Source: Candidatus Nomurabacteria bacterium (lineage in GTDB: Bacteria; Patescibacteriota; Minisyncoccia; Phycocordibacterales; UBA9973). Taken from it: a DNA stretch of 64,000 bases. The stretch spans positions 466,444 through 530,443 of the forward strand of contig CP060230.1 of the NCBI GenBank assembly GCA_023898605.1, given 5' to 3'. Below are positions 13,600-62,298 of this stretch, in pieces. The position numbers and the translations under genes are program-made. How positions within the stretch are numbered: position 1 is the stretch's first letter; the number at the start of each line of letters is the position of its first letter. The notes under the pieces are model-generated. The model ran no database searches and had not been told where the DNA came from. It saw only the letters and a list, made by a program, of their open reading frames with translations.

Positions 13600-13731
13600 C
13601 CTATAAGTATATTATACCACTATATTATAGTGGCGTCAATACCCTCTCTTTAAACTTTCTTTTGTCAAAAAAAGCTTAAAAAAGGGTCCCTTCCAGCATA
13701 TCTTGCGACATTCTGGAAGAGACTTTTGGGC

Positions 13732-15627: not shown

Positions 15628-15698
15628 GGAGAGTGGTATCCCCTATCACACCAAGTAAAAAGCCCTAAAAACAAGGCTTTTTGTGATAAAATAAACCC

Positions 15699-28417: not shown

Positions 28418-29698
28418 CTATATTTTCAGAAGCCAGAGACTCTGGTCTTTTTTATTTATAAACAAAAGATTATTTTCTTCTTCGTTTAGTTTCAAATTAA
28501 CACCATCTATTTGCGAACCAGATGTTTTTGAAAGGTTTTCGTTTAATATGTAAAGTCCTGTGTTTATATCGAACTTCCAAATATTATCACTCCAAGAAAT
28601 TTGCCCTTTATACCAAGCGTCTGGATATATAGGACCCAAAGAAACATTTTGAGGAACAGAACACCATGCGACAGTGCTGTCTTTTGACCACACACATTTT
28701 TCCGGGAGAGTTTTTAGTCCTGTATTTGTTACGGTTCCGTTTTCGTTTACCACAGAAAGCTCTAGTTTGTTGTTGAAATATGTTGATATGAGTGCAAGTT
28801 TTCCGTTTTCACTAACAAGTGATGTTAGACCACTAACTCCACCTATTATTTTTTCCATAATCTTTGTATTCTCGTTTATTTTATATGAATACCCAGAAGC
28901 CAACCCAGAAGCCTTGCTTGTTATAGACACAGTACTTGTCCCAACAGCTAGAACTTGTCCCAACCACTCAGAAAAAGGAGAAGAGAACGATTGTTTTTGA
29001 TTTGTGCCGTCAAAATTACTAGAAATACCAACAGATTCAGTACCTATTTTATATATATAGAAATATTTTGAACCATCTTTTGATATAGAGAAACTAGATA
29101 TATTATCAACCAAAAACTCTCCTTCTAGTGAACCAGCTCCACCCTCTACTTCTGTAATTTTTCCGATATATGTTTTTATGTTTCCATTGTCATCTAGATA
29201 CCTAAGAGCTACATAGTCTTCGTGGCCTATATAAGCCTCATAGACGCGAGGAATTGTTGTTCCTGACACTCTTGTTGTTATGCCAGTAGAAAGGTCTAGA
29301 TCGTAAACGTGGCCCGTTTCTTGTTCTACAAACCTGACGAAATCTTTTGTTTCCAAAATAGTTGTTTCTAGTCCGTTTTCATCGAGTCCTAAAATAGCTT
29401 CTTCTTTTTGATAAAAACCAGCCCCAGCCACAGGTTTCGAATATATTTTTGTTAGATTTTGTATATTTATACTAGATGGTGATTCTTCCCCATTGTCTCC
29501 AGTTGTTGAGTCTGGCAACGTCCCCGTATTTTCTCCATTTTGACCATTTTGAGAGAAAGGAAAAATATTTCTTGTCGTGTCCACAAAAACCTCGTTTGGA
29601 GTTTTGCCCGTTTGCTCGCTTCTTAGTATCAAATACCCAACTCCAGAAAGGATCGCTATAAGTATTATTACAATGATTCTAAAAAATGTTTTATTCAT
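28418..29698 (-). CDS. membrane-anchored extracytoplasmic hypothetical protein (possibly beta-propeller-like); last gene of the VirB4 operon
   Basis: N-terminal TM IIVIILIAILSGVGYLIL; no motifs recognised; 2-bp gap to the upstream gene. Confidence 0.4.
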   Translation of the reverse strand: MNKTFFRIIVIILIAILSGVGYLILRSEQTGKTPNEVFVDTTRNIFPFSQNGQNGENTGTLPDSTTGDNGEESPSSINIQNLTKIYSKPVAGAGFYQKEEAILGLDENGLETTILETKDFVRFVEQETGHVYDLDLSTGITTRVSGTTIPRVYEAYIGHEDYVALRYLDDNGNIKTYIGKITEVEGGAGSLEGEFLVDNISSFSISKDGSKYFYIYKIGTESVGISSNFDGTNQKQSFSSPFSEWLGQVLAVGTSTVSITSKASGLASGYSYKINENTKIMEKIIGGVSGLTSLVSENGKLALISTYFNNKLELSVVNENGTVTNTGLKTLPEKCVWSKDSTVAWCSVPQNVSLGPIYPDAWYKGQISWSDNIWKFDINTGLYILNENLSKTSGSQIDGVNLKLNEEENNLLFINKKDQSLWLLKI

Positions 29699-29699
29699 A

Positions 29700-30686
29700 C
29701 TAAGATACTGGAATTATATGTTTTAAACAGTTCTTATATTTATAAGAGTCCAAAGGTCTGTTTATTGTTGTTGCGTTTCCGATTGACCCAGTTGGGCCAT
29801 GAACATCTGCTATTAACCCAGAACCCGTATATACAACAACGTGTCCACCTTCCGCCAAATCACACTCCTCAGCTTTCCAGCCCAAAAGATCTCCAGGCTG
29901 GAGTGTAATACCATTAACCATGGTACTTGTTATGGAGAATATTTCTGAAGAATAATCTTCGGTAAACATTGTTGCTGTCCTACCATTTCCTGTTGGTATA
30001 GGAGTAAGACCCGCACATTGTCTAACCATGTTTGCATAACTAGAACAATCCAAATATATAGTTCCAGCTGGGCCAGGCTGTGTTCTTTGAGTTTGATCGT
30101 ATGTTACATTTCCATAAAAACTATCTGCTATAGATTTTATATAAGAAGAACCACCGCCTTCCGGGCAATAAATATCTGTCGGTATAGCAATGTCGTCAAA
30201 AGCCAAAGTAAAACTTGCATTATCATCGCCGGCTATTTCAATCTCCACCTTGTTCAAGGAAAGTTTAAAGTCTACGAGGTCTGGATCTAGTGTGTTTAGT
30301 AAGACATACGCACCAAGCAAAACCCCGAGTCCCAATAGTGCGTTTTCTATCATGTTTCGCCCATCACTTTTTTTGGTGACCACCTCACTTCCCATATACT
30401 GGATACCACCTACTACTATCATCACAACAGCTAGCGCCCCAGCAATACCTATTATTATCCCAAGAACCCCATTGAAGTAGCTACCAAAACTAGTGTCCTC
30501 TCCATCGAACCTGGTTTCAAATCCTGGAAGTGGTTGTAAAAAACAATAGCCAGTATCACCGTCTTTACAAATTGTTTCTGCTTGAGTTTCAAATTCAGTC
30601 TGCGCTTTTGTTGATCCACCAAAAAACAAGGAAAAAATAACAAATATAGAACCCAGTGCTATTAATATGTTTCTTTTTGTTTTCAT
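29700..30686 (-). CDS. NlpC/P60-family cell-wall hydrolase fused to an N-terminal signal peptide plus hydrophobic segment (CwlT/PrgK-like T4SS-associated hydrolase)
   Basis: Signal peptide, hydrophobic GVLGIIIGIAGALAVVMIVVGG, C-terminal NlpC/P60 signature (LDCSSYANMV catalytic Cys, PGDLLGW, GHVVVYTG His). Confidence 0.6.
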   Translation of the reverse strand: MKTKRNILIALGSIFVIFSLFFGGSTKAQTEFETQAETICKDGDTGYCFLQPLPGFETRFDGEDTSFGSYFNGVLGIIIGIAGALAVVMIVVGGIQYMGSEVVTKKSDGRNMIENALLGLGVLLGAYVLLNTLDPDLVDFKLSLNKVEIEIAGDDNASFTLAFDDIAIPTDIYCPEGGGSSYIKSIADSFYGNVTYDQTQRTQPGPAGTIYLDCSSYANMVRQCAGLTPIPTGNGRTATMFTEDYSSEIFSITSTMVNGITLQPGDLLGWKAEECDLAEGGHVVVYTGSGLIADVHGPTGSIGNATTINRPLDSYKYKNCLKHIIPVS

Positions 30687-30689
30687 TTT

Positions 30690-31694
30690 CTAAAATTCTA
30701 TATTAAGAATACCACTTATTTTTTGGAAAACAGTGTTTGGGTTTGTAACAGATATCTCTACAGAAGAAGTTCCGCTAACCCCATCTGGTTTTTGTAGTGT
30801 GATTTGATTTCTGGTTCCAGAACTGTTTGCAGAAGAACCATTTATTTTCCAAGAAATATTATTTGAAGACCTAGATATGTTTTTGTAATTTGTGCTTATA
30901 AAATATGGTTCACCAACGATGTTTATTTCATCAGAGGTTAGATTTGTATTTGTTCCAAGGGCTTGATTATATAGAATACCCTTGAGCGGTTCATATTTAT
31001 AGAAAACAACCTCTGAAGAAGACGGTCTTATAGTTAACTCTTTTTGAGATGAAACTGAACCGTCTCTAGATGTTATTGTTACAGAAATCTTATCTTCTTT
31101 GTCTAGAAACGCGTTTTTGTATGTGTAAGAATTTTTTCCATAACCAGAATAATCTTGCATGTTGTTGTAGTTTTGCTTCCAGTTATATACAAGGTCTCCA
31201 GAGTTTATGTTTTGGCCAATAGTGTTTTTGAAGTGTGGTATTGCAACTATTCTAACAATCGCCTCTCTTCCAGGAAGGGCTTTTCCCCTATAAAACGGTG
31301 GTGTGTATGAATCTACCGCTTCCCACAATATGTCTACATCTTGTGGTGTTATAAAGATATTTCTTTCTACTGCTATACCATTTCCAGTTGTTATAACAAC
31401 TTTTATTTCTAGTGTTTGTCCAGCAGCTGGTGCTTTTGTACTAAAGCTTTTTCTTCCATATCCAGACAAGACAGTTTCTCCGCCGACTTGCCAAGAAATA
31501 TTTGCCCGGTTTAGATCAGTAGAAAAGCTAGTTAGATTTATTGTCACACTTTCTCCTGGAGCCGGGTTTTCTGGAACAGAGTCTATACCTATCGTTATTG
31601 TGTCTGCCGGGTTTACTGTTTGTGCAGAAGAAAAACCCCAAAAACCAAAAACAAGCATAAAAATAAAACTTATTTGCCCGAATACTTTCATCAT
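30690..31694 (-). CDS. secreted hypothetical protein (signal peptide) within the VirB4 operon
   Basis: MMKVFGQISFIFMLVFGFWGFSSAQT signal peptide; beta-rich, possibly Ig-like repeats; 3-bp gap to the downstream gene. Confidence 0.4.
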   Translation of the reverse strand: MMKVFGQISFIFMLVFGFWGFSSAQTVNPADTITIGIDSVPENPAPGESVTINLTSFSTDLNRANISWQVGGETVLSGYGRKSFSTKAPAAGQTLEIKVVITTGNGIAVERNIFITPQDVDILWEAVDSYTPPFYRGKALPGREAIVRIVAIPHFKNTIGQNINSGDLVYNWKQNYNNMQDYSGYGKNSYTYKNAFLDKEDKISVTITSRDGSVSSQKELTIRPSSSEVVFYKYEPLKGILYNQALGTNTNLTSDEINIVGEPYFISTNYKNISRSSNNISWKINGSSANSSGTRNQITLQKPDGVSGTSSVEISVTNPNTVFQKISGILNIEF

Positions 31695-31729
31695 ATTTAT
31701 GGCTAAATTATATCACAAAAGGCCTTCTC

Positions 31730-33568
31730 TTAAGCCTTTATTCCAGAGTTTTCCTCGAATTCTTGTTTTGATCTTTTTATTGCTAGAACTTGTGCTGGGT
31801 CAGATGTGATTATTTGTTCTTCTGTATATGAAGCTATGATTTTTATCGCTACGTGTTTTAGTCCGGCAAAGAATATTCCCTCTCCCACTCCAGACTCTAG
31901 TAGTAGATATTTTTCTTCATCTGTAAGATTAAATGTCTTCTGGAGTGATTCTATGGTTGACGGAGACTGTTTCAAAAGTAGTTGTATAGAGGAGTTGGTT
32001 ATTATTGGAACTCCATATGGGGACCGCATAAAGTCGTCCACGTCTTGGGTTATAGTTGCAAGACCAAGCCAGTATTTTCTACATCTTTTTGCAATTCCAT
32101 AAAGGAAAGAAGCTGTATCTTCCGATTTCATCATCCACCACGCCTCGTCGACAACAAGAATTCTTTTTCTCTTCTCTCTTCTTATTGCGTTCCATATAAA
32201 GTGAGTAACTATATACATTGCGACCGGCTTAAGCTCGTCTTCCATGTCTCGAACAGAGAAAACAATAAACTTTTTGTTTATATCTATGTTGGTTGGTTGG
32301 TTTATAAAAGTTGACCAACTACCACGTGTGAATTTCTGAAGCTTCTGGAGTATAGAGTCTGTGTTTTCCATACCAGAAAGAACCATTTCAAAATCTGACA
32401 AAAGAGGTGCCTCAATTTTAGAAAAATCAGAATCTCCGTTTATATCTTTTATGGCGTATGTTTCTGTTATTGCCTTGTCTACAATCGCGTCTTCTTCTGG
32501 AGTTAGACCACCAAGCATGATTCTAAAAAGCCCAACAAGGTTTATAACGTTTGATCTCAGCACATCTGCGCCAGACTCATCTTCTGTCGGAAGTGGCAAA
32601 TCAAACGGGTTTATATGGTGATCTGAAGAAAGTGATATGTTGAAATATCTTCCACCAACAGCCTCTGCAAGATACTCATACTCTTTTTCTGGGTCTAGAA
32701 CCATAACTTCTATATCAAACATAAGAGAACGTAGTATTTCTAGTTTTGTCGCAAAGCTTTTTCCTGCACCGGCCTTTGCAAAAATAACAGAGTTATAGTT
32801 TTCCATAGAGAATCTATCGAACACCACCATGCTGGCATTGTGCCTATTGATTCCGAAAAGTATTCCTTTGTCAGAAGTTAGATCAAAAGAAACAAAAGGA
32901 AAAAGAGAAGAAAGCGGCGCAGAGTTTAGTTTCTGATGAACAGAAAGTAGGTCGTCCCCTATTGGAATAGTGCTTTTGAAGCCTTCTGATTGTTGGAAAA
33001 GAGCAGGTTTTAGATAAACAAGCTTTGCGTCTAGTATAGACTTGATTTCATTCTCTGTTTTGTATAGTTCTGACTCATTTTCTGCGTATATTGTTATATA
33101 AAGACCTACATCAAAAAGCTTTTCTTGTGCTTGTTGCAAATTGTCACGAAGCTCTTCTAGATCTCTGTACGCAGTGTCTAGCACAGGGTCTCTCACAAGC
33201 CCCTTCTGCTCTCTTATAGATATCTGGCTTGCAACTTCGGCAACTTTTTTCTGGAAGTGCTTTAGAACAGAAGATGTGTCTACGGGGTGTATAAAAATAG
33301 ATACATCAAATATCTTGTCGAGGTTTATTATGGGCGTGAACCAGTTGTCAGAAAGATATCTCGGATAAGAAATAACAAAAAATGTCTTTGCTATCTTGTC
33401 TCCCAAGTTCAAACTCTTTGAAGAAATTTCTAGTGCAGAAGGTGCTATATAGTCTTGCAATTCCAAAGTTGCAGCTTCGTAGATTTCTTTTGGCAAAATA
33501 GGAGAAAGAGAAACATCTGGCTCTTGTTTCGCGCTTTTTTTATTCAAGATAGAGTCTAGTAATCCCAT
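31730..33568 (-). CDS. VirB4/TrbE/CagE-family type IV secretion ATPase (Gram-positive ConE/PrgJ/TcpF-like)
   Basis: N-terminal ...FFVISYPRYLSDNWF...DVSIFIHPVD domain, Walker A AKAGAGKS, Walker B RILVVDEAWWMM, C-terminal GLATITQ motif; 612 aa. Confidence 0.8.
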   Translation of the reverse strand: MGLLDSILNKKSAKQEPDVSLSPILPKEIYEAATLELQDYIAPSALEISSKSLNLGDKIAKTFFVISYPRYLSDNWFTPIINLDKIFDVSIFIHPVDTSSVLKHFQKKVAEVASQISIREQKGLVRDPVLDTAYRDLEELRDNLQQAQEKLFDVGLYITIYAENESELYKTENEIKSILDAKLVYLKPALFQQSEGFKSTIPIGDDLLSVHQKLNSAPLSSLFPFVSFDLTSDKGILFGINRHNASMVVFDRFSMENYNSVIFAKAGAGKSFATKLEILRSLMFDIEVMVLDPEKEYEYLAEAVGGRYFNISLSSDHHINPFDLPLPTEDESGADVLRSNVINLVGLFRIMLGGLTPEEDAIVDKAITETYAIKDINGDSDFSKIEAPLLSDFEMVLSGMENTDSILQKLQKFTRGSWSTFINQPTNIDINKKFIVFSVRDMEDELKPVAMYIVTHFIWNAIRREKRKRILVVDEAWWMMKSEDTASFLYGIAKRCRKYWLGLATITQDVDDFMRSPYGVPIITNSSIQLLLKQSPSTIESLQKTFNLTDEEKYLLLESGVGEGIFFAGLKHVAIKIIASYTEEQIITSDPAQVLAIKRSKQEFEENSGIKA

Positions 33569-33641
33569 AATTTTTTTATCTTCATATATTATAACCCATT
33601 TTTATTTTAATATAATTAAAATAGGTTATAATTATCTACAT

Positions 33642-34298
33642 ATGGCACAAATCGGGGCACCAACACAACAATTTGTCCCAATAAAAGAAATACGAGACGG
33701 TGTGGTTGTTTTGAAAGACGGCTCTCTTAGGGCGGTTCTTCTTGCTTCTTCTGTAAACCTTTCTTTGAAGTCTTATGATGAAGAGCAGGCTATAATAGGG
33801 CAATTTCAAGCTTTTTTGAACTCGCTAGACTTTTCTCTTCAGATAATAGTGCAATCTAGAAGATATGACGTAAGACCATATCTTTTATCTCTAGAAGAAA
33901 GGATGAGAGAACAGACAGAACCTCTACTCAAGGTTCAAACCAAAGAGTATATAGAATTTATACGTTCTTTTACAGAGCAAAATGCGATAATGAAGAAATA
34001 TTTCTACCTAGTTGTCCCTTATAACTCTGTTGTTTTAAATACAAAAGGTGCCGCCGGAAAACTAGAACAGTTTCTACCTTCTAGTCTCAAGGGCTCTGCT
34101 CCCAAAAAAGAAGGCGCTACTGAGTTTGAAGAAATGAAGTCTCAACTTGAACAAAGACTCACCGTTGTAGAAGAAGGAATGGCAAGAGTTGGTATAAGAT
34201 CTGCTAGGCTTGGAACAGAAGAGTTGATAGAAGTTTTCTACAAATGGTTCAATCCAGGAGATTCTGCACAAAGTGGTGTGGCAGATAATTTGGCATAA
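33642..34298 (+). CDS. hypothetical soluble protein divergent from the VirB4 gene; weak resemblance to VirB4 N-terminal-domain-like sequences
   Basis: 218 aa, no TM; DGSLRAVLL...FLNSLDFSLQIIVQS pattern; 2-bp gap to the following small membrane protein. Confidence 0.3.
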   Translation: MAQIGAPTQQFVPIKEIRDGVVVLKDGSLRAVLLASSVNLSLKSYDEEQAIIGQFQAFLNSLDFSLQIIVQSRRYDVRPYLLSLEERMREQTEPLLKVQTKEYIEFIRSFTEQNAIMKKYFYLVVPYNSVVLNTKGAAGKLEQFLPSSLKGSAPKKEGATEFEEMKSQLEQRLTVVEEGMARVGIRSARLGTEELIEVFYKWFNPGDSAQSGVADNLA

Positions 34299-34300
34299 TT

Positions 34301-34723
34301 ATGAATTTCAAAGTTCCACAATTTATAGAAGTTGAAGATAAGGTTTTTGGACCACTTACATTCAAGCAGTTTATATATCTTGCGGGTGGTGCAGGTCTCT
34401 GCTTTATATTGTGGAGACTCCTACCCCACTTTCTAGCTATTATATTTATAGCACCTGTTGCTGGTTTTGCTGCGGCGTTAACTTTCCTCAAAATAAATCA
34501 AAAGCCTTTTATCCAAATAGTTGAAGCGTTTTTGAATTATCAAATCGCATCTAAATTATATGTCTGGAAAAAAGAACCTAAAAAGATAAAGCCTAAAAAA
34601 GAAGAAGACATAATACCAAACACAGGATACCTCCCAAAAATGTCCGAGAGTAAGCTCAAAGACCTTGCTTGGAGCTTGGATGTTCTCGATTCCTCTACAC
34701 AAAACAAAGAATTAAAACAATAA
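34301..34723 (+). CDS. small 2-TM membrane protein, VirB3/PrgI-like candidate
   Basis: 140 aa, hairpin of two TM helices (FIYLAGGAGLCFILWRLL / LAIIFIAPVAGFAAALTFL) with a charged C-tail; location within the T4SS-like module. Confidence 0.35.
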   Translation: MNFKVPQFIEVEDKVFGPLTFKQFIYLAGGAGLCFILWRLLPHFLAIIFIAPVAGFAAALTFLKINQKPFIQIVEAFLNYQIASKLYVWKKEPKKIKPKKEEDIIPNTGYLPKMSESKLKDLAWSLDVLDSSTQNKELKQ

Positions 34724-34747
34724 AAATCCCGCTGAGTGCGGGATTTT

Positions 34748-35437
34748 TTATACTTCTTCTCTGTATGGATCCAAACCATGATATGAGCCGGTTTTTGGAG
34801 GCTTGATCTCTTTTCCGATACTTGGTAGAGATCTGTCGCTAACTTCTGTTCTCATGGTTGTCGGTGCAGAAAGTTTTTCTTTCAAAAAGCTTGGTTTTTC
34901 TTGTCCTCTGTCTGGTTCACCAGTAGGAAGTTTTATTTTAAGGTCGTCCTCTATCGATACTTCGTTTGGCTTCTCGTCTTCTGTTTTTTTAGTTTCTACT
35001 ACAGGACTACTTACTATCTCTGGTTCTTTTTTCTCGTATATCTCAACCCCTGATTTTTCTAAAACATTTTTTTCTTCTGGAGATATTTCTTCTTTGTCTT
35101 CTACCTCGTTCATGATTTCTGTTAGTTCTATCTCTCGCTCTCTTATAGGGTTAAATATGTTTGAGTTTAGGTTTTCTATGACAGACAAAACTTTGTCTTT
35201 TGGGATACCGTTTATGGCGTTTATTTCTACACGAAGTTCATCTGTTGATAGTAGTCCTACTGTTGCAAGATCCACCACGTCGAAAAGATCTTTTCCGGTA
35301 TCTAAGTGTAGCCCCTCTTTTTCTACAAGATCTTTTATTCTTTCTGGAACGTTTACATCCAAAACAGCCTCTTTTGTTGTAACGGGCAAGTTTTCAAATG
35401 CTTCTATTATTTGGTCTGGAGTGAATTTTTTGATCAT
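34748..35437 (-). CDS. hypothetical acidic soluble protein (last gene of the VirB6 operon)
   Basis: 229 aa, E/D/K-rich, no TM; 17-bp gap after the VirB6-like gene. Confidence 0.35.
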   Translation of the reverse strand: MIKKFTPDQIIEAFENLPVTTKEAVLDVNVPERIKDLVEKEGLHLDTGKDLFDVVDLATVGLLSTDELRVEINAINGIPKDKVLSVIENLNSNIFNPIREREIELTEIMNEVEDKEEISPEEKNVLEKSGVEIYEKKEPEIVSSPVVETKKTEDEKPNEVSIEDDLKIKLPTGEPDRGQEKPSFLKEKLSAPTTMRTEVSDRSLPSIGKEIKPPKTGSYHGLDPYREEV

Positions 35438-35454
35438 ATATTATAAATTATACA

Positions 35455-38400
35455 TTATTTTTTAGTCTCCCCACTAGATGGATTGGAACCACCACCCTCT
35501 TCTCGGTTTAATTTAGTGTCAACTTCTGCCAAGTCATTCTTATTTTTTTCGTAATCTTCTATTGTCTTGGCCTCTACTTCATGTTCTCCAATTTCTCTAT
35601 AAAGATCTCTTATTTCTCCATTAATTCTATCTTTTTCTGCGGTATCATTTGTCGCGTTGTGTTTTGCCCTAAGTAATTTAACCATATCTCTCTTTAGATC
35701 CATGTCGGCTTTTTTGTTTTGCTTTTCTACATTTAATATATAACTTCTTTTTTCTGCTTCATTTAATTCTCTACCTTTTCTTTCACCCTCTAATCTTACT
35801 AGTTCTGCCATCTTTTCACCTTCTTTCGTTGTTACGTCAAGAAGTTTTTTCAATGTTTCTTCTACTTTTCCTACTTTTTCTTGTAGTCTGTCGCGTTTTT
35901 CTTTCAACTTGTCTTTAGCACCCTTGGAACTCTCTTTCTTATCATATTTTTCTCCCACAGCCTTTGCTGCAGCAACTTCCGCCCTTCTGTCTAGACTTTG
36001 ACCACCAACTCCTTGAGGGTTTCTTAGTAACATATTTCCTGTTTTCTTCCAACCATCAGTACTCTTTCTTCTGTCTAGGTATTGATTTCGTAGGTCTTTG
36101 TTTAGATCATCTACATTGTCTTTTACAGAAACAGTTTTACCTCTTTGTTTTTCAAATTTTTCAACAGCATCTTTTTCTTCAAAATTAATTCTTTTGGCTA
36201 ATGACGCAAGTGCTAATGGATCACGGACTGTTTTTGTGTCTATATTTTGCCCTTTTTCTCTCGCAAGTTTTATTATTTGATCTTCTATAAATCTCTGCTT
36301 ATCTTTATTGTATTTTTCCAACTTCTTTTCTTGATAAAGAACACCTCTCTTCTTCTTGTTTCCATCTTTATCCGTTAGTTCTTCCTCGAACCAGTCTTTG
36401 CTCATCTTCCTAGACTCTATATGAGACTCCATTTCTTTGATCTTTGCTTTCTTCTTTCTCTTTTCAATTGCAGCTAGGCCACCCTTGCCGGCGTTTGAAC
36501 CGAAACCTATTCCCTTTTGATCGAAGTTTACACCAGCGCCAAGATTTTTACCTAGACTAGACTGCAATTTACCGCCGAGTCCAGTTTGTCTCAGGTCAAA
36601 ACTAGATTCTTTTGCAGCTTTACCAGTTTTTGTAATACCTGTACCGATTTGACGAGTGAAGAAGTTCTTGCTGTTTGCCCACTTCTTGGCAGTTTCACTT
36701 TCTCCTGCAGTTGCAGCAATTCTACCAGCAGTTGCCCGCAAACCAAATGCGGTTGCTCCAAGAGCTACACCACCAGCAACACCAAGAGCTGTTCCGACAA
36801 GTTTTGTTCCAGTTTCTACCACCTGTTTTCCAAATTTTCCTGACATATCTATGGTTATATCCCGAGCTTGTTTTAGAAGTGCTATCACAATCAAGAACTG
36901 GAGTGCTATCGAAAGCATAAGTTCGTAGAAGTTAAGATTTTCTGATTTTACTAGTCCCCCTATAAAGTCACTGTTTATGAAAAGTATTATTAGATACAAG
37001 AAGAACAAAAATAGTGGCGCCAAAAACGTTAACCTTACAAGACTATAAGACCACTTTTTCATACCAAACTCTCCACTTGCAATAGATCCTTGGTCCAGAG
37101 CTTTGCTTAGAAAGGCAAACGGAGAAGCAATCATCATGACCCAGAGACCAACAATTCTACCCAAGAAAACCATCGCAACTTTTATGAAAATAAATATAAG
37201 TGTGATATTTAGTATTATTCCAAAAATTATAATTATTGCGGGAACAGCCCAAGTAGAAGCTCCTCCAAAATCCCCCTGCCTCAAAGCAGAAACCGTTTCT
37301 CTTGAAAATATTGTTTGAATTTTTGTTCCCTGTACAACACCGGCAGAAAGAGACTTTGTCTGACCTATACTGTCAGTAGAAGTTACGGTATTTATGGGAT
37401 CGCCGGTAATTGATATTTGGTTATAGAATATTTTTGCGAGAACATTACCCGCATCTATTACTACTTGTGTGAAGAATAAACTGAAGTTTATAAGTAGTCC
37501 AAATATTATTACATTTACTATTACTTTTCTGACATTTGTTCTTCCCCCCAGTATTGTAGATATTCCAGCCCAAACCAGAGTGAGTATAAAACCTATGTTT
37601 GCAAAGTTTTTTATTATTCTCCATCCTTCCTGTACAAAGCTCGGGTCTTTGTATATATAACTTGATATTGAGAAAGATAGAAACGCATCAAAAAATGATC
37701 CAACAACATAAAGAAGTGTTGCTGACGGCATATATACAACATAATAAAGGGTTATTATGATACAAGATTGAAAATTACTTTCCTTTCCACCAAGAGCCGC
37801 CGTTCCAAAACCACAGTCTAGTCCAGAAAGTATTATGTTTCTATCGTTTTGTTCAAAAGAGGATGTTTCATATATATAACTGTCTTCAGAGAGCGGCGCA
37901 GCTTCTCCGGCCGGAGTCACAAATGTTTTAAGTGGACCAAAACCAACTCTTTGGTCTGTTCCAGAAAGACCAGCGTCTTCTACTATAACAAGCTGCGCAT
38001 AATATGGTTTTCCTGGTTCTAAGTTTGGAACTGTAAATACAAAACTATTTATATTTGTTATTTCTGTTGCATCTATGGCGCCGACGGTTAACTGTGAAAA
38101 CGTAGGAGAAATGGGTATTACTCTTTGATTTTTCGACGCCTCGTAAGTATCTTCAGTTGGAATATTTGCTATTTCAAAGTTTTTATAATTATCCCAACCA
38201 GCTTCTCCCATTTCTGACAAAAGAACAAATTCTGGCGTTGTTTCAAAATTAATTTCTCCACCTCCCGCAAAACCTAATTCTCCTAGTGTTCCTCCTGTCC
38301 ACGGACAATCATCCAGTTCTTCTGAGTTTTCAAAAAAACAATCAATAGTTTGAATCGTAGTTGGTATATATCCATCTCCGGTACCAGGAGCACTATTTAC

Positions 38401-38937
38401 AAGTTTTTTTGAGTCATCTGTATTTCCAAGGTTTACCGGGGATCCTTCTGCTTCAAAATAATTATAAAGAGTTGTTTTGCTTTGTGATACAACTAAAAAT
38501 ATTCCGTTTTTTCTACCCAAAAAACCTCCACCATATCTTGTTTCCCACTTGTCATCTGCCCCACTAACAAACAGCGAATCCCATCCATGATAATCACCGA
38601 AGCCAGTAGGGACTCCTGCTGTTGCATTTACAACCGCACCCGGAGTAGAGTCATTCGAGAAGCCCAAAGAAAATTCAAAAAGTGCTGAACTTGGCTGAAC
38701 ATTTGAAACACTCAAGTTAGTGTTTCTTACTGGGTATATGTTTATAAAATTACTTAATACTTTCCAGTTATCAAATGTCCCATAATCTCCAAGAATACTA
38801 GGATCTCCCCAAAAAACGTCTTCCATTTCCCATGTTGACGCAGAAGCCTTATTCAAAGGAAAAAGCACCAAAATAGAAAAGGTAAAGGCAAAAAGCAGAA
38901 TATTTCTTATTGAAGAATTTCTGAAAATACTTGGCAT
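35455..38937 (-). CDS. giant VirB6/TrbL-like polytopic membrane protein with large N-terminal extracytoplasmic domain and roughly 440-aa charged/coiled-coil C-terminal tail
   Basis: Signal peptide; roughly 390-aa exo-domain; at least 7 TM helices between residues about 390-720; Gly-rich segment; K/E-rich heptad-like tail (KRKKKAKIKEMESHIESRK...). Confidence 0.55.
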   Translation of the reverse strand: MPSIFRNSSIRNILLFAFTFSILVLFPLNKASASTWEMEDVFWGDPSILGDYGTFDNWKVLSNFINIYPVRNTNLSVSNVQPSSALFEFSLGFSNDSTPGAVVNATAGVPTGFGDYHGWDSLFVSGADDKWETRYGGGFLGRKNGIFLVVSQSKTTLYNYFEAEGSPVNLGNTDDSKKLVNSAPGTGDGYIPTTIQTIDCFFENSEELDDCPWTGGTLGELGFAGGGEINFETTPEFVLLSEMGEAGWDNYKNFEIANIPTEDTYEASKNQRVIPISPTFSQLTVGAIDATEITNINSFVFTVPNLEPGKPYYAQLVIVEDAGLSGTDQRVGFGPLKTFVTPAGEAAPLSEDSYIYETSSFEQNDRNIILSGLDCGFGTAALGGKESNFQSCIIITLYYVVYMPSATLLYVVGSFFDAFLSFSISSYIYKDPSFVQEGWRIIKNFANIGFILTLVWAGISTILGGRTNVRKVIVNVIIFGLLINFSLFFTQVVIDAGNVLAKIFYNQISITGDPINTVTSTDSIGQTKSLSAGVVQGTKIQTIFSRETVSALRQGDFGGASTWAVPAIIIIFGIILNITLIFIFIKVAMVFLGRIVGLWVMMIASPFAFLSKALDQGSIASGEFGMKKWSYSLVRLTFLAPLFLFFLYLIILFINSDFIGGLVKSENLNFYELMLSIALQFLIVIALLKQARDITIDMSGKFGKQVVETGTKLVGTALGVAGGVALGATAFGLRATAGRIAATAGESETAKKWANSKNFFTRQIGTGITKTGKAAKESSFDLRQTGLGGKLQSSLGKNLGAGVNFDQKGIGFGSNAGKGGLAAIEKRKKKAKIKEMESHIESRKMSKDWFEEELTDKDGNKKKRGVLYQEKKLEKYNKDKQRFIEDQIIKLAREKGQNIDTKTVRDPLALASLAKRINFEEKDAVEKFEKQRGKTVSVKDNVDDLNKDLRNQYLDRRKSTDGWKKTGNMLLRNPQGVGGQSLDRRAEVAAAKAVGEKYDKKESSKGAKDKLKEKRDRLQEKVGKVEETLKKLLDVTTKEGEKMAELVRLEGERKGRELNEAEKRSYILNVEKQNKKADMDLKRDMVKLLRAKHNATNDTAEKDRINGEIRDLYREIGEHEVEAKTIEDYEKNKNDLAEVDTKLNREEGGGSNPSSGETKK

Positions 38938-39007
38938 AATATATAGATAAATTATACCTCATTTATATGAAATTACTCTATTTTTTTCCTAAATATCAAC
39001 AGAGTTT

Positions 39008-42000
39008 CTAGTATCCGTAATCTGGATTTTCGTAAGAGTTAATCCAGGGATTTATAAGAACTGGTCCCCAATAATTTTCATCTCCAAGCTGTGCCCCAAG
39101 TTTTGCCCCATACGCACGTGCCTCAAAGCTCAGGTGGTATTGCCATATGTTTTGAGCAATATCGTTTATACCACCATCTATTACTATAGGTTCTGATCCA
39201 GATGTTGGGTCATATATTTGATAGAAGCCCCAAGGATTGTAAGGAGGGTTTCTAAATGGATAGTATATAGAGTATGGATTTGCAGATACGTCTAGTGGGT
39301 ATAGTGATTTTGTATCGTATAGATATATTCTCCAAATATTATTTTTTACATTATCTATAGTATTTCCCACGCCTTTTGATTGAAGGTTTGCATAAGAACA
39401 TATACTACTTGCAGAAGACCCATCTGGCATAACTGTTGTTCTCATATTTATTCCGTCTGGATAGCATTGTCTTACAACTTGGTATAGCGAATCATATACC
39501 CAGCTATCGCTGGCTATGCTTATAGAATAATCTGTATCCATATAATTTCTAAGAAGGTGACTTTTTACATCTCCTGCTATCGCGCCTATGTCTGGATTTT
39601 CTATATAGTTCACGCACCCCCAATTTCCCCAACCACAAGTTTTTATTTCACTTTCTATTTTTGGAATTATATCGCCAGTAGATTCTAGGTCTACTTGAGC
39701 ATAAGAAAGATCTGTCTTGAGTGAAGTTATAACGTCGTCTGTTACCAGAAACGGCTGAGCAAATGAATATATGTACTGTAGTCTTTCTAGTGCAGTCTGA
39801 TTCTCGGCAGTGTTTTGTTGTGCGTAAGGTATTTTGTCTAATTCATCGGCTATGTACTGGAGTCTATACAAGTTTGAAACTTGTTCGATGTATTTTGATC
39901 TGTATTCTTCTAGAAGATCTTTATAAGCAGGTATTTTTTGAGTTTGGGCTCTTCCAAGAGATGCACTTGGTAGGTTGAAGTTGTCTATATCGTATTGGAT
40001 ACGAGACATCTCGTTTTGGTATACAAGATCTATGCTATTCAAAAGGTTTCTTCTTTTTTCCTCTATATTACACTCCCAACAGAATCCGAGTGCGTGTGAT
40101 ATTCCTGCGACAACTCCAGAAAGAGGTAGTGCATAAAGTGCATTTACTATATCAAGGACTGTTTCATCTGCTGTCATGATTTCTTCTCTTTGTGTTAGGT
40201 ATTGATCAGTCACCCTCGCTTGCCAACCTTGGTCTGGTTCCGGCATAACTTTGTCTAGTTGTTGGAGTTTTGGTAGTAGAACTAACTGTATATAGTCTAT
40301 GTTTTGCTTCAAGATTTCTATATACTCTTCTGTTACAGCAATGTCAGTTCTACAAGGAGCATCGCTTGAGAAATCTATTGTCCCAGAAAGTGATCCTCTT
40401 GGTCCAAATAGTTCTGTTGTTAGTGCTCCTGCCCCTCCAAAAATTATTCCACCACCTTCTATCCCTATACCATCGTCAAATATTCCTCCTCCAACATCTA
40501 CTCCTCCGCCGACTCCGTCAAGGCCAGATTCGATAACATCTCCTGTGTCGGGATCAGCTATCCCGCCAGCGAGTATATCATCTAGGCTTATAGTTGTTAT
40601 GTCTCCGGTTCCTATTACACCACCGCCAAAGAGGTTTCTTCCACCAATGTCTGCCCCAGATATTATATTTCCATACTTTACACACTGAAGTTTATAGTAT
40701 AGGTCTACGGGGGAGAATGGGTCTTGATACCAAGTGCTTCCCTCACCGTTTAGGTAGTATGAAGTGTTTACACCATAACCACCTGTCTGGTCTGTTGTAA
40801 CAGACGCAGTTGTAAGAGATGTGACACCTTGGTATATAAGTTGTTGCATAAGCGCATCGAAAATAGCCCCCAGAGATTCGTTTAGTTCGTCTGCGAGTTC
40901 TAGTTGTTTTACAGATGATCCAAGAGATATGTTTAGTTGATCTGCGAGTACACCTCCTGGTGTTGTTGTTTCGTATCTCGTACAGTTGTCAACCTCTCCC
41001 GCCCAAGCATATTCGTAGTTTCCATCAAGCAAGTTTGAACCTCCTCCGCCCAGTAGCGGGTTACTGCTAACAGCTAGTCCTTCAGGGAGGCCCTCGGCTG
41101 TGTTTGTTGTTTCGGCGGTATTTCCACTTACAGCCGTTGTATAGGTTACACCTCCAACCGTTTGTTTGTACTCAACACATTTTCTCAAGTTTAGAAAACC
41201 ATTATTTTGTAGAAGCTCATCTTTTATACTACTTTGTTTTTGTTCTATTCTCTTATTTATTTCTTGAGAAGCTAGAAAGTTAAATCCGATAGGAGAGTTT
41301 GCTGGGTTTTGTGTCATGGCAAGCCAGCCGTTCCACCCGCCAACAGAGAAGTCTGTAGCAAAGTCTTCCCAGTTTTCTCCTATATCGTCTGCAAGTGTAA
41401 ATACTGCGGTGCTTTCGAAATCTTGACCATCATATATTGCCGCCAAACTCGCACCAATTTCTGCGCCGAACGGATACTTCACAGGGTCATTGAGTTCTGA
41501 AACGAATGCATAAACCTCTTGATCAGCAAGAGTTTTCAAGAAAGATATAGGTTCGCTTAGAAAAAGAGGGTTTCCCTCGAAACCTGTGTTTATCCAGTTT
41601 ACCGTATCTCTTGTTATGGCTGCCAAGACGCTTTTCGCAGCAGCATAACCTATGGCGTCAAGACACTTTTCTTTTTGTGTGTATTCCCTACTTATTTTAA
41701 TTGATTCAGCATCCTTAACAGGAACAAACTGAAGTGATGCATTTGTTGTACCAACTGCCTTGTCAAAAATATTATTTAATGCACCACTTATTTTACTATC
41801 TGTCCCAGTGCAGCCAAGTAGTGCTAAACCGACACCGGAAGCTATTGGGGAGTTTTGATCATAATATAAACTACCTTGATTAGATGAAGGCTGGTTATAC
41901 TGTGCCCTTGCAACAGAAACCGGACCCAAAATGTATGCAAAAACAAAAGATAGATTCAAAAAAATAGAAACAAATAATTTTATGTTTTTATTGAGTTTTT

Positions 42001-42019
42001 TTGATTTTGGGGTAGGCAT
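39008..42019 (-). CDS. large (1003 aa) secreted/membrane-anchored protein of unknown function with Gly/Asp-rich segment
   Basis: N-terminal TM/signal (FVSIFLNLSFVFAYILGPVSVARA); GGIADPDTGDVIESGLDGVGGGVDVGGGIFDDGIGIEGGG segment; many Trp/Tyr; 9-bp gap to the upstream gene. Confidence 0.45.
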   Translation of the reverse strand: MPTPKSKKLNKNIKLFVSIFLNLSFVFAYILGPVSVARAQYNQPSSNQGSLYYDQNSPIASGVGLALLGCTGTDSKISGALNNIFDKAVGTTNASLQFVPVKDAESIKISREYTQKEKCLDAIGYAAAKSVLAAITRDTVNWINTGFEGNPLFLSEPISFLKTLADQEVYAFVSELNDPVKYPFGAEIGASLAAIYDGQDFESTAVFTLADDIGENWEDFATDFSVGGWNGWLAMTQNPANSPIGFNFLASQEINKRIEQKQSSIKDELLQNNGFLNLRKCVEYKQTVGGVTYTTAVSGNTAETTNTAEGLPEGLAVSSNPLLGGGGSNLLDGNYEYAWAGEVDNCTRYETTTPGGVLADQLNISLGSSVKQLELADELNESLGAIFDALMQQLIYQGVTSLTTASVTTDQTGGYGVNTSYYLNGEGSTWYQDPFSPVDLYYKLQCVKYGNIISGADIGGRNLFGGGVIGTGDITTISLDDILAGGIADPDTGDVIESGLDGVGGGVDVGGGIFDDGIGIEGGGIIFGGAGALTTELFGPRGSLSGTIDFSSDAPCRTDIAVTEEYIEILKQNIDYIQLVLLPKLQQLDKVMPEPDQGWQARVTDQYLTQREEIMTADETVLDIVNALYALPLSGVVAGISHALGFCWECNIEEKRRNLLNSIDLVYQNEMSRIQYDIDNFNLPSASLGRAQTQKIPAYKDLLEEYRSKYIEQVSNLYRLQYIADELDKIPYAQQNTAENQTALERLQYIYSFAQPFLVTDDVITSLKTDLSYAQVDLESTGDIIPKIESEIKTCGWGNWGCVNYIENPDIGAIAGDVKSHLLRNYMDTDYSISIASDSWVYDSLYQVVRQCYPDGINMRTTVMPDGSSASSICSYANLQSKGVGNTIDNVKNNIWRIYLYDTKSLYPLDVSANPYSIYYPFRNPPYNPWGFYQIYDPTSGSEPIVIDGGINDIAQNIWQYHLSFEARAYGAKLGAQLGDENYWGPVLINPWINSYENPDYGY

Positions 42020-42028
42020 TTTTTATCA

Positions 42029-42976
42029 CTAAATTATACCATAAGAAGAAAAGTAGCTTGTAATTTTATCAAGGGCACTTTCCCCAGATTCTTGTGAGGC
42101 CCTGTATGTTGCAAGACCTCTTGTTCCGAGAACTGGGTCTATCCAAAGGTTTAGTAGATCTATAAGGCCACGCTTGCTTCCAGAAATTGCGTTTAAGAAA
42201 GCTAAATGATATTCGCTTGCCGTTCTAGGCACGTTTATTTTCTTTAGCTCTTCTTCTACGTGTGTGTAAGACTCTATTGCCCCCTGTATCCCAATAAGAG
42301 ATGCTTTATCTCCACCATCTATTCCCACAAAGTTTCCCAAGTATGAAACTTCATCTCCTAGAAGTAGCGCTTGATCACTCGCATATATTGCAGCTAGTTT
42401 GTTGTAGTAGCTCAAAACCTCTGCCTCAGAACTACCTACAATATTTATATCGTCTAAACTATAAGTTGCAGCGTATGTTGTTTCGAAAAATGATTCGCTC
42501 ATAGTCAGGGCGAGATTATTTACAGCTTCACTCGTTAGAACGCCCGCTTCTTGTAGGGAAATAAGTGTTGCAAAGTATTCTCTGGCAAAGATTTCTGTTT
42601 GTGTGTCTGCTGTGTCAGCCGAAGCGCCTGTTTTTTCTCGAAGTTCTGCCCTTTTTTGTTCTATATATACGCCATCTGTTTGTCCGTCTCCATCTGTATC
42701 TTTGCTATCTGGGTTTGTGCCCCATAAGTATTCCTCCCAGTCTTGTACACCATCCCCATCTGTATCTACATATGCAAGGTCACTAACCAAAACTTGTTTT
42801 AAGTCTCTTTTGGCTATTTTTTTCTTTATATCATTTTCGGTCGGTTTTTTGAGAAGTTCTTTGCCCACAAAAAACAAAACTATACATCCACAAACAATAC
42901 TCACTTTTATAAGTAGTTTTTTACTGGGCATGTATGGTGCAACACTTTTTATTTTTTGTTTTATTTTTTTGAACAT
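42029..42976 (-). CDS. membrane-anchored protein with thrombospondin-type-3-like calcium-binding repeats (DTDGDG)
   Basis: N-terminal TM; DTDGDGVQDWEE...DTDGDGQTDG and DGDGVQDWEEYLWGTNPD motifs; 315 aa. Confidence 0.45.
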   Translation of the reverse strand: MFKKIKQKIKSVAPYMPSKKLLIKVSIVCGCIVLFFVGKELLKKPTENDIKKKIAKRDLKQVLVSDLAYVDTDGDGVQDWEEYLWGTNPDSKDTDGDGQTDGVYIEQKRAELREKTGASADTADTQTEIFAREYFATLISLQEAGVLTSEAVNNLALTMSESFFETTYAATYSLDDINIVGSSEAEVLSYYNKLAAIYASDQALLLGDEVSYLGNFVGIDGGDKASLIGIQGAIESYTHVEEELKKINVPRTASEYHLAFLNAISGSKRGLIDLLNLWIDPVLGTRGLATYRASQESGESALDKITSYFSSYGII

Positions 42977-42977
42977 T

Positions 42978-43358
42978 TTATTTTGGGAGTGAAGATCCGG
43001 ATGAGCCTATTAGGCTTATTGGGAATGTTAGATACGGAGTCGCCGTTTCTACCTGTATACACCCTGGCGCCGTACTAAGAGTTCTTCTGTATAGACCCAA
43101 AACATAAGATCCAGTCCTTATGCTTTGAAGCCCGCCTGTTCCTGGGATTATTCCATAAGGAGTTGACGGCATTGTTATAGATGCAGGAGCTATTGTTAGT
43201 GGGCTTGTTAGATTAGGGCATTCGACAACCCCTGACATGCCAGTCATAAGAACTTTTCCACCAAATCCAACCGGTTGAAGAAAGGCATTTGTACTATAGA
43301 CGAGACCAAACATTAAAAACAAGCTGAAAATAGCTAGAAATATTTTTACTTTTTTCAT
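42978..43358 (-). CDS. small secreted protein (signal peptide), Gly/Pro/Thr-rich; first gene of the module
   Basis: MKKVKIFLAIFSLFLMFGLVYSTNAF signal peptide; 126 aa; 1-bp gap to the next gene. Confidence 0.4.
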   Translation of the reverse strand: MKKVKIFLAIFSLFLMFGLVYSTNAFLQPVGFGGKVLMTGMSGVVECPNLTSPLTIAPASITMPSTPYGIIPGTGGLQSIRTGSYVLGLYRRTLSTAPGCIQVETATPYLTFPISLIGSSGSSLPK

Positions 43359-43377
43359 GTTTATATGATAGCACGAT

Positions 43378-44181
43378 TTACCTTCGTGCTCTCGAGATAG
43401 AAATCCACTTATCTAGATTTATCTCTTCTGGTCTATGGTTTTCTTCTAGGCCCAGCTTGTCCCAAATCTCCTTTAGATTTTCTTCGTCGTAAAGATCCTC
43501 AATGTTTTTTATAGCCTTTTTTCTTTTGTGTAGAAATGCAGTTTTTATGAGCTCAAAAAACCCCTCTTCTTCTTTGTGGTTTTTGAAATTTTTCTTGCTT
43601 ATGTTTTTTATAGAAATAATTGCCGATTCTACCTTTGGCACAGGTCTAAATGCTTCTTTTGGAACTTTTGTTATATATTCTGGTGTTCCATATACCCAAA
43701 CAGAAAGAGCTAGTATGCTTTCGCCCTCTTCTCTTTTTACTATTCTTTTTGCAACCTCGTTTTGAACCAGAAGAGACATTGTTTGTGGTTGAAAATCAGA
43801 AGACAAAAATTTTCGTATTATAAGGCCCGTTATATAGTACGGAATGTTTGCTACTACTTTATAAGATTTTGCTAGTTTTTTTATTTTTGATATATCGAAA
43901 TCTGCGACATCCTCGCTTACAAGATGAAGCTTCCCGTCCGCTATTTCTTTTTTGAACTTTTCTTTTAGATGTAGAACGATAGCATCATCTTTTTCTATTG
44001 CCAGAACCTTGAATCCTCTAGCCAAGACTTCTTCTGTTATGGCTCCATAACCCGGTCCGATTTCTAGAACCAAGTCCCCAGTCTTTAGATCTGCAGAATC
44101 TATGATTTTGGTTACAAATCTTTTTTGTTTCAAAAAGTTTTGCCCTAATGATTTTTTTGGTCTTGGCATAATGTTAGTCAA
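43378..44181 (-). CDS. rsmA: 16S rRNA (adenine1518/1519-N6)-dimethyltransferase
   Basis: KSLGQNFL start, SAM motif LEIGPGYGAITE, NIPYYIT motif; 267 aa. Confidence 0.85.
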   Translation of the reverse strand: MTNIMPRPKKSLGQNFLKQKRFVTKIIDSADLKTGDLVLEIGPGYGAITEEVLARGFKVLAIEKDDAIVLHLKEKFKKEIADGKLHLVSEDVADFDISKIKKLAKSYKVVANIPYYITGLIIRKFLSSDFQPQTMSLLVQNEVAKRIVKREEGESILALSVWVYGTPEYITKVPKEAFRPVPKVESAIISIKNISKKNFKNHKEEEGFFELIKTAFLHKRKKAIKNIEDLYDEENLKEIWDKLGLEENHRPEEINLDKWISISRARR

Positions 44182-47614: not shown

Positions 47615-47629
47615 AATTTTTATAAAACA

Positions 47630-47654
47630 AACCCCGCCACTCGGCGGGGTTTTT
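47630..47654 (+). terminator. Rho-independent terminator CCCCGCC-actc-GGCGGGG + T5
   Basis: Perfect 7-bp GC stem followed by TTTTT, 16 nt after the LysM-M23 stop. Confidence 0.75.
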
Positions 47655-47679
47655 CATTGCCTAAAAAATTAACAAACAA

Positions 47680-47718
47680 AAGGTAACACAAAACTACGAT
47701 CGTGAAATGTGTTACCTT
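47680..47718 (-). terminator. terminator-like hairpin (AAAGGTAACACA...TGTGTTACCTTT, 12-bp stem) followed by T-rich tract on the minus strand
   Basis: Long inverted repeat downstream of the comM-like stop. Confidence 0.5.
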
Positions 47719-47742
47719 TTGTTTGTTTATTTGAAGGCTTGT

Positions 47743-57700: not shown

Positions 57701-57749
57701 TTGAGATTTATAATAAGGTTATAGAAATTTTTAAGAGGAAAAAATAGTT

Positions 57750-58955: not shown

Positions 58956-58968
58956 TTATTATAAGCTT

Positions 58969-59337: not shown

Positions 59338-59344
59338 ATAACGT

Positions 59345-61321: not shown

Positions 61322-61332
61322 TTTTTGAAAAT

Positions 61333-62295: not shown

Positions 62296-62298
62296 TTT

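Follow-up and report, generated by a model that had tools for sequence, protein, structure and literature searches.

Genes for a type IV secretion system (T4SS), comprising VirB4, VirB6 and VirB2 along with secreted proteins, were described across Saccharibacteria and other candidate phyla radiation (CPR) bacteria, or Patescibacteria, by McLean et al. 2020 (PMC7427843). In Southlakia epibionticum, Wang et al. 2023 (PMC10633639) found the T4SS genes, SEML1_0006-0019, to be adjacent to the origin and, by transposon sequencing, essential for epibiotic growth: the system is like those of Gram-positive conjugation and has pilins, with no recognisable coupling protein or relaxase. The survey of 3,035 genomes by Quinonero-Coronel et al. 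2025 (PMC12102498) places the patescibacterial VirB4 in a monophyletic clade nested in the mating-pair formation type FATA (MPF-FATA), with TrsD, PrgI, VirB6 and VirB2-like pilins near virB4, relaxases in only 103 of the genomes and, in Paceibacteria, a locus near dnaA, dnaN, rnpA and ksgA. A 2025 review (PMC12857230) and a 2024 perspective (PMC11665869) both give the role of the system as unknown, and suggest effector delivery or nucleotide acquisition; a June 2026 preprint describes tubular structures, possibly T4SS pili, that penetrate the envelope of the host, in a patescibacterium that feeds on RNA (bioRxiv 10.64898/2026.06.21.733656). In this paper, we describe a locus of eleven genes that belongs with these systems, found at positions 28418-43358 of a 64-kb window, which is the whole stretch of DNA analysed, of Candidatus Nomurabacteria (Paceibacteria).

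We are confident that the region is a chromosomal, non-conjugative T4SS of the kind typical of Patescibacteria, a confidence that applies to the identity of the system and not to its cargo. The locus is a rediscovery of a system already published (2020, 2023, 2025), and nothing in it is categorically new. An earlier, sequence-only reading had proposed a chromosomal T4SS without relaxase, with a presumably non-conjugative role, in a CPR-like organism; the organism is indeed a Candidatus Nomurabacteria, and the same picture is in print (PMC12102498, PMC10633639, PMC7427843, PMC12857230). The open reading frames (ORFs) that it listed are all confirmed in the window sequence, with their coordinates, strands and operon picture. 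They are, in the order of the minus strand:

42978-43358, minus strand: small secreted protein, 126 aa, with a signal peptide, a mature N-terminus FGGK[V/I] and two conserved Cys
42029-42976, minus strand: bitopic membrane protein, 315 aa, with a TSP3-like motif for calcium binding, DxDGDGxxDWEE, and a C-terminal domain that is helical
39008-42019, minus strand: secreted or N-terminally anchored protein, 1003 aa, with an N-terminal domain that is conserved, a middle rich in Gly and, at 555-795, a confidently predicted helical bundle
35455-38937, minus strand: extended VirB6-like polytopic protein, 1160 aa, from Pfam matches of homologues and a fold match
34748-35437, minus strand: acidic protein, 229 aa, with 52 D+E against 32 K+R and no transmembrane (TM) segment
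34301-34723, plus strand: PrgI/VirB3-like membrane protein, 140 aa, Pfam PF12666
33642-34298, plus strand: TrsD-like protein, 218 aa, free-standing and homologous to the N-terminal domain of VirB4
31730-33568, minus strand: VirB4-family ATPase, 612 aa, from NCBIfam, Pfam and PDB matches
30690-31694, minus strand: secreted protein, 334 aa, with a signal-peptide-like N-terminus
29700-30686, minus strand: pilin-hydrolase fusion, 328 aa, from PF18895 and an NlpC/P60 profile
28418-29698, minus strand: N-terminally anchored TolB-like beta-propeller protein, 426 aa, with a hydrophobic segment at residues 1-28

The module thus consists of a minus-strand run of proteins of 126, 315, 1003, 1160 and 229 aa, a plus-strand pair in the middle (218 and 140 aa), and a second minus-strand run of 612, 334, 328 and 426 aa. 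It totals 4,891 aa, of which about 3,700 are secreted or membrane-anchored, so that the roughly 5500 aa of secreted protein announced by the earlier reading was an overestimate.

The identity of the system is best seen in its cytoplasmic components. The 612-aa protein matches the NCBIfam family NF045971 (conju_CD1110) with an E-value of 7.4e-110 and 368 bits, above the cutoff of 325, Pfam P-loop_TraG at 5e-27 and, among PDB sequences, 4AG5, the C-terminal domain of a VirB4, at 1e-44, and TrwK at 1.7e-6. Its weaker matches to HerA/DUF87 are expected in this superfamily: the protein is a VirB4 ATPase, as predicted, and not a member of FtsK/HerA. Both the Walker A motif GAGKS and the Walker B motif VVDEAWWMM are intact, and the very same VirB4 occurs on 9 contigs of independent samples, GCA_020428735.1 among them. 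The protein spans positions 183-732 of the 752 positions of the CD1110 profile, and the complementary part is encoded next door: the 218-aa protein, which had been taken for a plain soluble protein, spans positions 1-119 of the same profile, and matches NCBIfam TrsD (NF041427) at 9.5e-6 and positions 104-234 of VirB4_plasma, the mycoplasma VirB4, at 8.7e-10, in addition to a precomputed Pfam assignment to PF26593 (TraC-like). Since the profile positions of the two proteins complement each other, and given the TrsD and PF26593 matches, TrsD is, on sequence comparison, the N-terminal piece of VirB4 encoded as a separate gene, and would supply the first 180 or so profile positions that the 612-aa VirB4 is without. 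The third component, of 140 aa, had been read as VirB3/PrgI-like, and its match to PF12666 (PrgI; 3.7e-11, 43.9 bits for a cutoff of 27) agrees, with a hydrophobic hairpin at residues 30-66.

The comparison with related genomes was made with one genome per species; a VirB6 relative was found in 398 genomes. Synteny is counted over the 44 Paceibacteria loci with full 10-kb flanks, and identities and ORF counts over 80 related loci (L007-L086). The order uvrD-rsmA-315-1003-VirB6-(229)-PrgI-TrsD-VirB4-334-328-426-jag/yidC-dnaA, in which numbers stand for protein lengths, is kept in 39-44 of the 44 loci. Gene by gene, the 315-aa and 426-aa proteins are in place in 39 loci each, and PrgI, TrsD (beside virB4) and the 334-aa protein in 43 each; the locus itself is at the same chromosomal site in 43 of the 44 species genomes. 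With about 40 of 44 species genomes sharing this order, the locus is vertically inherited at a fixed chromosomal site, and is not a segment of a plasmid or of an integrative and conjugative element (ICE).

Conservation is very uneven along the module. The median identity of VirB4 is 75.9% over 99% of its length (65 species genomes), with a range of 72-85% in 65 Paceibacteria genomes. The medians are 56% for TrsD (65 of the 80 loci with a match) and 51% for PrgI (71 of 80); in the same genomes, those of the housekeeping genes uvrD, rsmA and yidC are 48%, 47% and 45%, and the extracellular parts of the module are at 27-38%. The set formed by VirB4, TrsD and PrgI, which we will call the engine, is very probably under strong purifying selection, and a conservation of VirB4 far above that of neighbouring housekeeping genes is possibly a new detail.

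The strands of two of these genes vary between genomes. Of 65 related loci, 60 have both PrgI and TrsD on the strand of VirB4, and four have PrgI alone on the other; in the window and in its closest relative (L015) both are flipped, the positional order being unchanged. This distribution points to gene-by-gene flips rather than to the inversion of one segment. A search for inverted repeats flanking PrgI and TrsD that might explain the flips gave nothing convincing.

The channel protein of the system is harder to recognise. The 1160-aa protein is composed of a signal or anchor, an ectodomain of about 350 residues that is poorly modelled, a TM core at 385-715, and a C-terminal coiled coil of about 340 residues. 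Eight of 54 homologues match Pfam TrbL/VirB6 (PF04610), the best at 2.2e-7. In the AlphaFold model, the TM core has a pLDDT of 85-95, and the top PDB fold match of this core by Foldseek is TrwI/VirB6 of R388 (8rt9_F, probability 0.99, E-value 6.4e-3). A phmmer search of the protein against PDB sequences gave no match; the full-length profile, when compared to PDB, is swamped by coiled-coil matches, and aligns with TrwI across the whole TM core with an E-value of 0.21. Residues W439, N484-F485-S486 (in the motif LLINFSLFFT), R594 and P606 are invariant. The Pfam matches of homologues, the fold match and the weak profile match thus indirectly identify the protein as an extended VirB6, in agreement with the earlier reading, which had called it VirB6-like.

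The 328-aa protein was first read as an NlpC/P60 hydrolase with a membrane domain. The hydrolase stands; the "membrane domain" turns out to be a VirB2-like T4SS pilin module. The protein is laid out as a signal peptide, a pilin hairpin (residues 45-140, approximately) and an extracytoplasmic NlpC/P60 endopeptidase (about 170-328). Pfam T4SS_pilin (PF18895) is matched by 34 of 49 syntenic orthologues, the best at 5.6e-9. The NlpC/P60 part has no direct Pfam match, and phmmer found no match of the protein among PDB sequences; close homologues have PF00877, and the profile of the orthologues (A7) matches the DL-endopeptidase CwlO at 3.6e-12 and at least 8 other NlpC/P60 structures in PDB. The residues D213-C214-S215 and G281-H282 are invariant in the orthologues, so that the catalytic pair Cys214/His282 is kept.

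This protein holds the sole pilin-like domain within the window, and the situation is similar elsewhere: a pilin domain is present in 55 of the 80 related loci, exactly one in 50 of these 55, nearly all in ORFs of more than 250 aa. The enzyme domain is variable. At the same syntenic position (n = 49), we find VanY in 8 loci, NlpC/P60 in 7, YkuD in 4, SLT-type in 4, M15_4 in 2, Amidase_5 in 2, Extensin-like_C in 2 and Amidase_2 in 1. The hydrolase domain on the pilin module thus appears to be swapped between species, which is possibly new; no mention of pilin-hydrolase fusions was found in the literature searched.

The module has the parts of a conjugation machine and none of its DNA-processing genes. 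The sequence-only reading had noted the lack of a relaxase, of a coupling protein and of an adjoining integrase, and this holds throughout the window. Neither a relaxase nor a type IV coupling protein (T4CP) is found among the Pfam-scanned ORFs of the window, and the unscanned ORFs, all of less than 200 aa, are too short for either. No integrase adjoins the module, the sole tyrosine recombinase of the window being 12 kb away among housekeeping genes; no tRNA flanks it, the nearest being more than 22 kb away; and no components of type VirB7/9/10 were found. The base composition of the module is not distinct. An ICE was considered and rejected: there is no relaxase or T4CP in the window, no adjoining integrase or tRNA, and the site is the same in 43 of 44 species genomes.

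The origin of the machinery can be traced. Among 72,556 plasmids, the best VirB4 identity is 34.5%, and the top matches are of the CD1110 family of Bacillota and Actinomycetota. Plasmid pCDC3875 of Clostridium botulinum has the order VirD4-VirB6-PrgI-x-VirB4-x-SLT hydrolase, which is collinear with the module except for VirD4; the likeness to a Gram-positive conjugation scaffold that had been noticed at first is thus borne out, at identities of at most 34.5%. Judging from these similarities, the module descends from monoderm (MPF-FATA) conjugation machinery, whose relaxase and coupling protein would have been lost or never kept nearby.

What, then, would such a machine do? By analogy with the R388 and Gram-positive models, TrsD and PrgI would dock a VirB4 hexamer at the cytoplasmic membrane, the three forming the engine, and VirB6 would be the conduit. 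Since both ends of the pilin-hydrolase fusion are predicted outside the membrane, its enzyme would be extracytoplasmic. The TolB-like and peptidoglycan-binding proteins may tie the assembly to the wall, and the pilin-hydrolase and the other surface proteins may build and open a path through the peptidoglycan at the site of contact with the host cell. The machine would move macromolecules other than conjugative DNA between epibiont and host: it may export proteins, and it may as well take up material of the host, for instance nucleic acid. This host-directed transfer of macromolecules is a role that we propose tentatively, by analogy, and with appreciably less assurance than the identity of the system.

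One can go further on the role of the fusion. Recent cryogenic electron microscopy of an RNA-feeding patescibacterium suggests a feeding conduit (bioRxiv 10.64898/2026.06.21.733656), and the VirB2-like module and its hydrolase could form an enzyme-bearing piercing filament, in which the hydrolase, tuned to the wall chemistry of each host, breaches the host wall for such a conduit. We regard this conjecture as rather unlikely, and it is with the same reserve that we mention its corollary, namely that the hydrolase does more than a VirB1-like remodelling of the cell's own wall.

There is also the possibility that the locus encodes a machine for DNA uptake, or competence, like ComB of Helicobacter or the archaeal Ced, which are T4SS-derived and without relaxase or coupling protein. 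The absence of both from the window fits, and the gene of ComM, a competence-associated helicase, lies 4.4 kb away (47743-49284); however, uvrD, rsmA and the gene of an M23 peptidase stand between ComM and the module, and ComM is in the flanks of only 7 of the 44 loci. The module has a weak similarity to NCBIfam CedB (7.3e-9), which, at 34.8 bits for a cutoff of 700, reflects only the common VirB4 fold; CedD reaches 15.3 bits for a cutoff of 600. In class ABY1 the T4SS is co-localised with comF, recG and radA (PMC12102498), and organisms without nucleotide synthesis need an uptake of nucleic acids (PMC11665869). Against this, the deletion of comEC in Southlakia abolishes transformation and leaves viability unaffected, and the T4SS is essential (PMC12857230): because comEC is dispensable there, the essentiality of the T4SS does not come from ComEC-dependent transformation. 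On balance, we find competence improbable.

Several observations weigh against the identity that we give to the system, or limit its scope. The assignment of the 1160-aa protein to VirB6 is indirect, with no direct match in Pfam or NCBIfam, and the target TM-score of its match to TrwI is only 0.40. The 328-aa protein itself, at 2.1e-5 and 25 bits, is just under the cutoff of 26.6 of PF18895. No VirB8-like component was identified in the module. The membership of its VirB4 in the published Patescibacteria clade is consistent with a similarity ranking, from which alone it was judged. The role of the T4SS is "completely unknown" even in Saccharibacteria (PMC11665869). Finally, the absence of relaxase and T4CP covers 64 kb of a genome of about 0.6 Mb, in which distant copies are possible, and proteins like VirD4 are frequent in other parts of patescibacterial genomes (PMC12102498).

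These last two points are also those that favour a conjugative system of the ordinary, active kind, with a relaxase and a coupling protein that would be encoded elsewhere in the genome: T4CP genes are often distant from virB4, most patescibacterial genomes have VirD4-like proteins (PMC12102498), and the inspection covered 64 kb. We consider it very unlikely, given that the survey detected relaxases in no more than 103 of its 3,035 genomes (PMC12102498), that the T4CP homologue of Southlakia is non-essential and its T4SS essential (PMC12102498, PMC10633639), and that the locus has the same chromosomal site across species, unlike a transmissible element.

The idea that the locus is what remains of an integrated conjugative element, decayed or domesticated and with no working machine, finds some comfort in the monoderm conjugation ancestry, in the absent DNA-processing genes and in the tyrosine recombinase gene 12 kb away (55104-56015), but is scarcely credible for a set of eleven intact genes, in an order that about 40 of 44 species genomes share, with a VirB4 more conserved than adjoining housekeeping genes, intact catalytic motifs in both VirB4 and the hydrolase, no flanking tRNA, a recombinase that sits among housekeeping genes and whose domain architecture also fits a Xer-type chromosome-dimer resolvase, and orthologues that are essential in Southlakia (PMC10633639). 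The recombinase, of 303 aa, has a Phage_integrase core and a SAM-like N-terminal domain. Upstream of it is a gene with an NYN domain (53354-53857), and downstream are genes of sugar metabolism; rather than the integrase of a mobile element, it is probably a dimer resolvase of Xer type.

We now turn to the other proteins of the module. Searches of Pfam and NCBIfam with the 1160-, 1003-, 426-, 334-, 229- and 126-aa proteins gave no match. The 1003-aa protein belongs to a very large family, of 5,506 representatives at 50% clustering (E-value at most 1e-3), 2,828 of them at 1e-30, for which neither Pfam nor NCBIfam has a model and no structural match was informative; the size of this unannotated family is possibly a new detail. 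The profile of the orthologues of the 426-aa protein (A3) has 12 matches in PDB, all to TolB chains, the best being 7mx5_A at 1.8e-4, and 9 of 41 orthologues have an additional PG_binding_1 domain. The 315-aa protein has weak matches to Pfam TSP3_bac (0.0063) and NCBIfam CglD (4e-5), and a single hydrophobic segment at residues 18-43; in the alignment of its orthologues (A5), D71 and E82 are invariant, and D79, W80 and E81 nearly so. A few orthologues of the 334-aa protein have weak matches to Ig_3, PKD_3 or ig, and the protein, which has no match among PDB sequences, is probably made of Ig/PKD-like beta domains. The 229-aa protein is poorly conserved, being detectable in 14 of the 80 loci. 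As for the 126-aa protein, at least 13 other species genomes have a small homologous ORF at this place, with rsmA on one side and the 315-aa gene on the other, and share the motifs FGG[KR][IV], two Cys and G.[WY][IV]LG; the ORF is found in only about a third of related loci.

The flanks of the module had been read as housekeeping genes, yidC/jag on one side and rsmA/uvrD on the other, and a Pfam scan of the ORFs returns the same genes. The features outside the coding regions of the module are:

23686-24783, minus strand: dnaN, in the flank on the yidC/jag side
24980-26329, minus strand: dnaA, in the same flank, its end 2.1 kb from the module
27222-27926: yidC, in the same flank, used as a housekeeping comparator
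33569-33641: divergent intergenic region between virB4 and trsD, 73 nt, AT-rich
34722-34748: bidirectional intrinsic-terminator hairpin with an 11-bp perfect stem and T-runs on both strands, between the convergent genes of PrgI (plus) and of the 229-aa protein (minus)
43378-44181, minus strand: rsmA/ksgA, in the other flank, with a gap of 19 nt to the 126-aa gene
44174-46081, minus strand: uvrD, beyond rsmA

The genes rnpA, yidC and a Jag/R3H gene, which ends at 28407, lie between dnaA and the module. We take the module to lie beside the replication origin; DnaA-box counts in the window are no higher than expected by chance, and the origin itself was not pinpointed. On the other side, uvrD, rsmA and the first T4SS gene (43358-46081) have the same orientation, with overlaps or tiny gaps; because of this co-orientation, the overlaps and the 19-nt gap, the upstream T4SS operon may be co-transcribed with the two housekeeping genes. 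Within the region between virB4 and trsD, an AT-rich palindrome at 33588-33632 has arms of 22 nt, 86% complementary and 1 nt apart, and a promoter-like site is found on the minus strand at 33638-33609; the palindrome could act as an operator or as a promoter element common to both genes.

Genes of a LysM-LysM-M23 peptidase, ComM (Mg-chelatase-like) and polynucleotide phosphorylase lie 3-9 kb from the module (46544-49284; 50695-52815). The first two recur at the corresponding position in some relatives, and the third is an enzyme that was proposed, in a 2026 preprint, to process host RNA. Farther away, a patch of higher G+C content (11353-17399; 0.42-0.45, against about 0.36) contains three genes, for a 748-aa secreted protein that is fn3/PhoD_N-like, a 631-aa secreted protein, and a T2SSE ATPase of PilB type, the motor of type IV pili. 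The 631-aa ORF (13732-15627) is a low-complexity protein, rich in G/Y/N/W, with a C-terminal 'QQKQVWATQPRNQ' repeat and without a P-loop. At 56528-63138, a glucan-metabolism cluster encodes a GT4/GT5 glycosyltransferase, a GH57 protein, a GH15 glucoamylase-like protein, a protein with a bacterial PGI C-terminal domain, and a ROK glucokinase.

Few machines are known to be indispensable to the host-dependent life of this very large and for the most part uncultured bacterial branch, and the patescibacterial T4SS is among them; this locus is a clean example of it in Paceibacteria, with a fully conserved eleven-gene layout. It offers three leads: the pilin-hydrolase fusion, with an enzyme domain that appears to be swapped between species; the combination of a highly constrained engine and fast-evolving surface parts, as expected for an organelle of host contact; and the 1003-aa partner of VirB6, from a very large unannotated family.

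How does the module compare with known systems? Bordetella Ptl, Brucella VirB, Helicobacter ComB and the archaeal Ced are, like it, powered by VirB4 without a dedicated coupling protein or relaxase (PMC12857230, PMC12102498). However, the first three are diderm systems with an outer-membrane core (VirB7/9/10), Ced is archaeal, and no membership of the module in any of them was found at the sequence level. The Trs system of pGO1/pSK41, the source of the TrsD family, also has a free-standing TrsD beside its ATPase (PMC12102498), but the pGO1 subclass is a true conjugative plasmid system without recognisable VirB6 (PMC12102498), whereas this module has a VirB6 and lacks the genes for DNA processing.

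Closer are the CTn2/CD1110-type MPF-FATA modules of Bacillota, such as that of pCDC3875, which share the order VirB6-PrgI-x-VirB4-x-hydrolase and a VirB4 above the CD1110 equivalog cutoff. Membrane-anchored hydrolases are likewise found in the Prg/Pcf system of pCF10 and the Con system of ICEBs1, with PrgK and CwlT. The differences lie in the slot upstream of VirB6, which is occupied by secreted proteins where CD1110-type modules have a VirD4-like coupling protein, in the lack of a relaxase here, in VirB4 (about 610 aa and a separate TrsD, compared to about 800 aa; identity at most 34.5%), in VirB6 (1160 aa, compared to about 260), and in the fact that the locus is chromosomally fixed and not mobile.

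The closest of all are the T4SS of the Patescibacteria clade. Differences exist even there: Saccharibacteria have about six free-standing, divergent pilin genes, where this locus has one pilin-like module fused to a hydrolase; the accessory proteins of 1003, 315, 334, 426 (TolB-like) and 126 aa are not named in the published descriptions examined; and PrgI and TrsD are flipped to the other strand here and in the closest relative. The accession of the genome was not found in the supplementary tables of PMC12102498 that were examined. The common ground includes VirB4, TrsD, PrgI/VirB3, VirB6 and a VirB2-like pilin module, genes of cell-wall hydrolases placed downstream of virB4, the absence of a relaxase or T4CP nearby, a monoderm (MPF-FATA) ancestry, and a place on the chromosome beside dnaA, dnaN, rnpA and ksgA.

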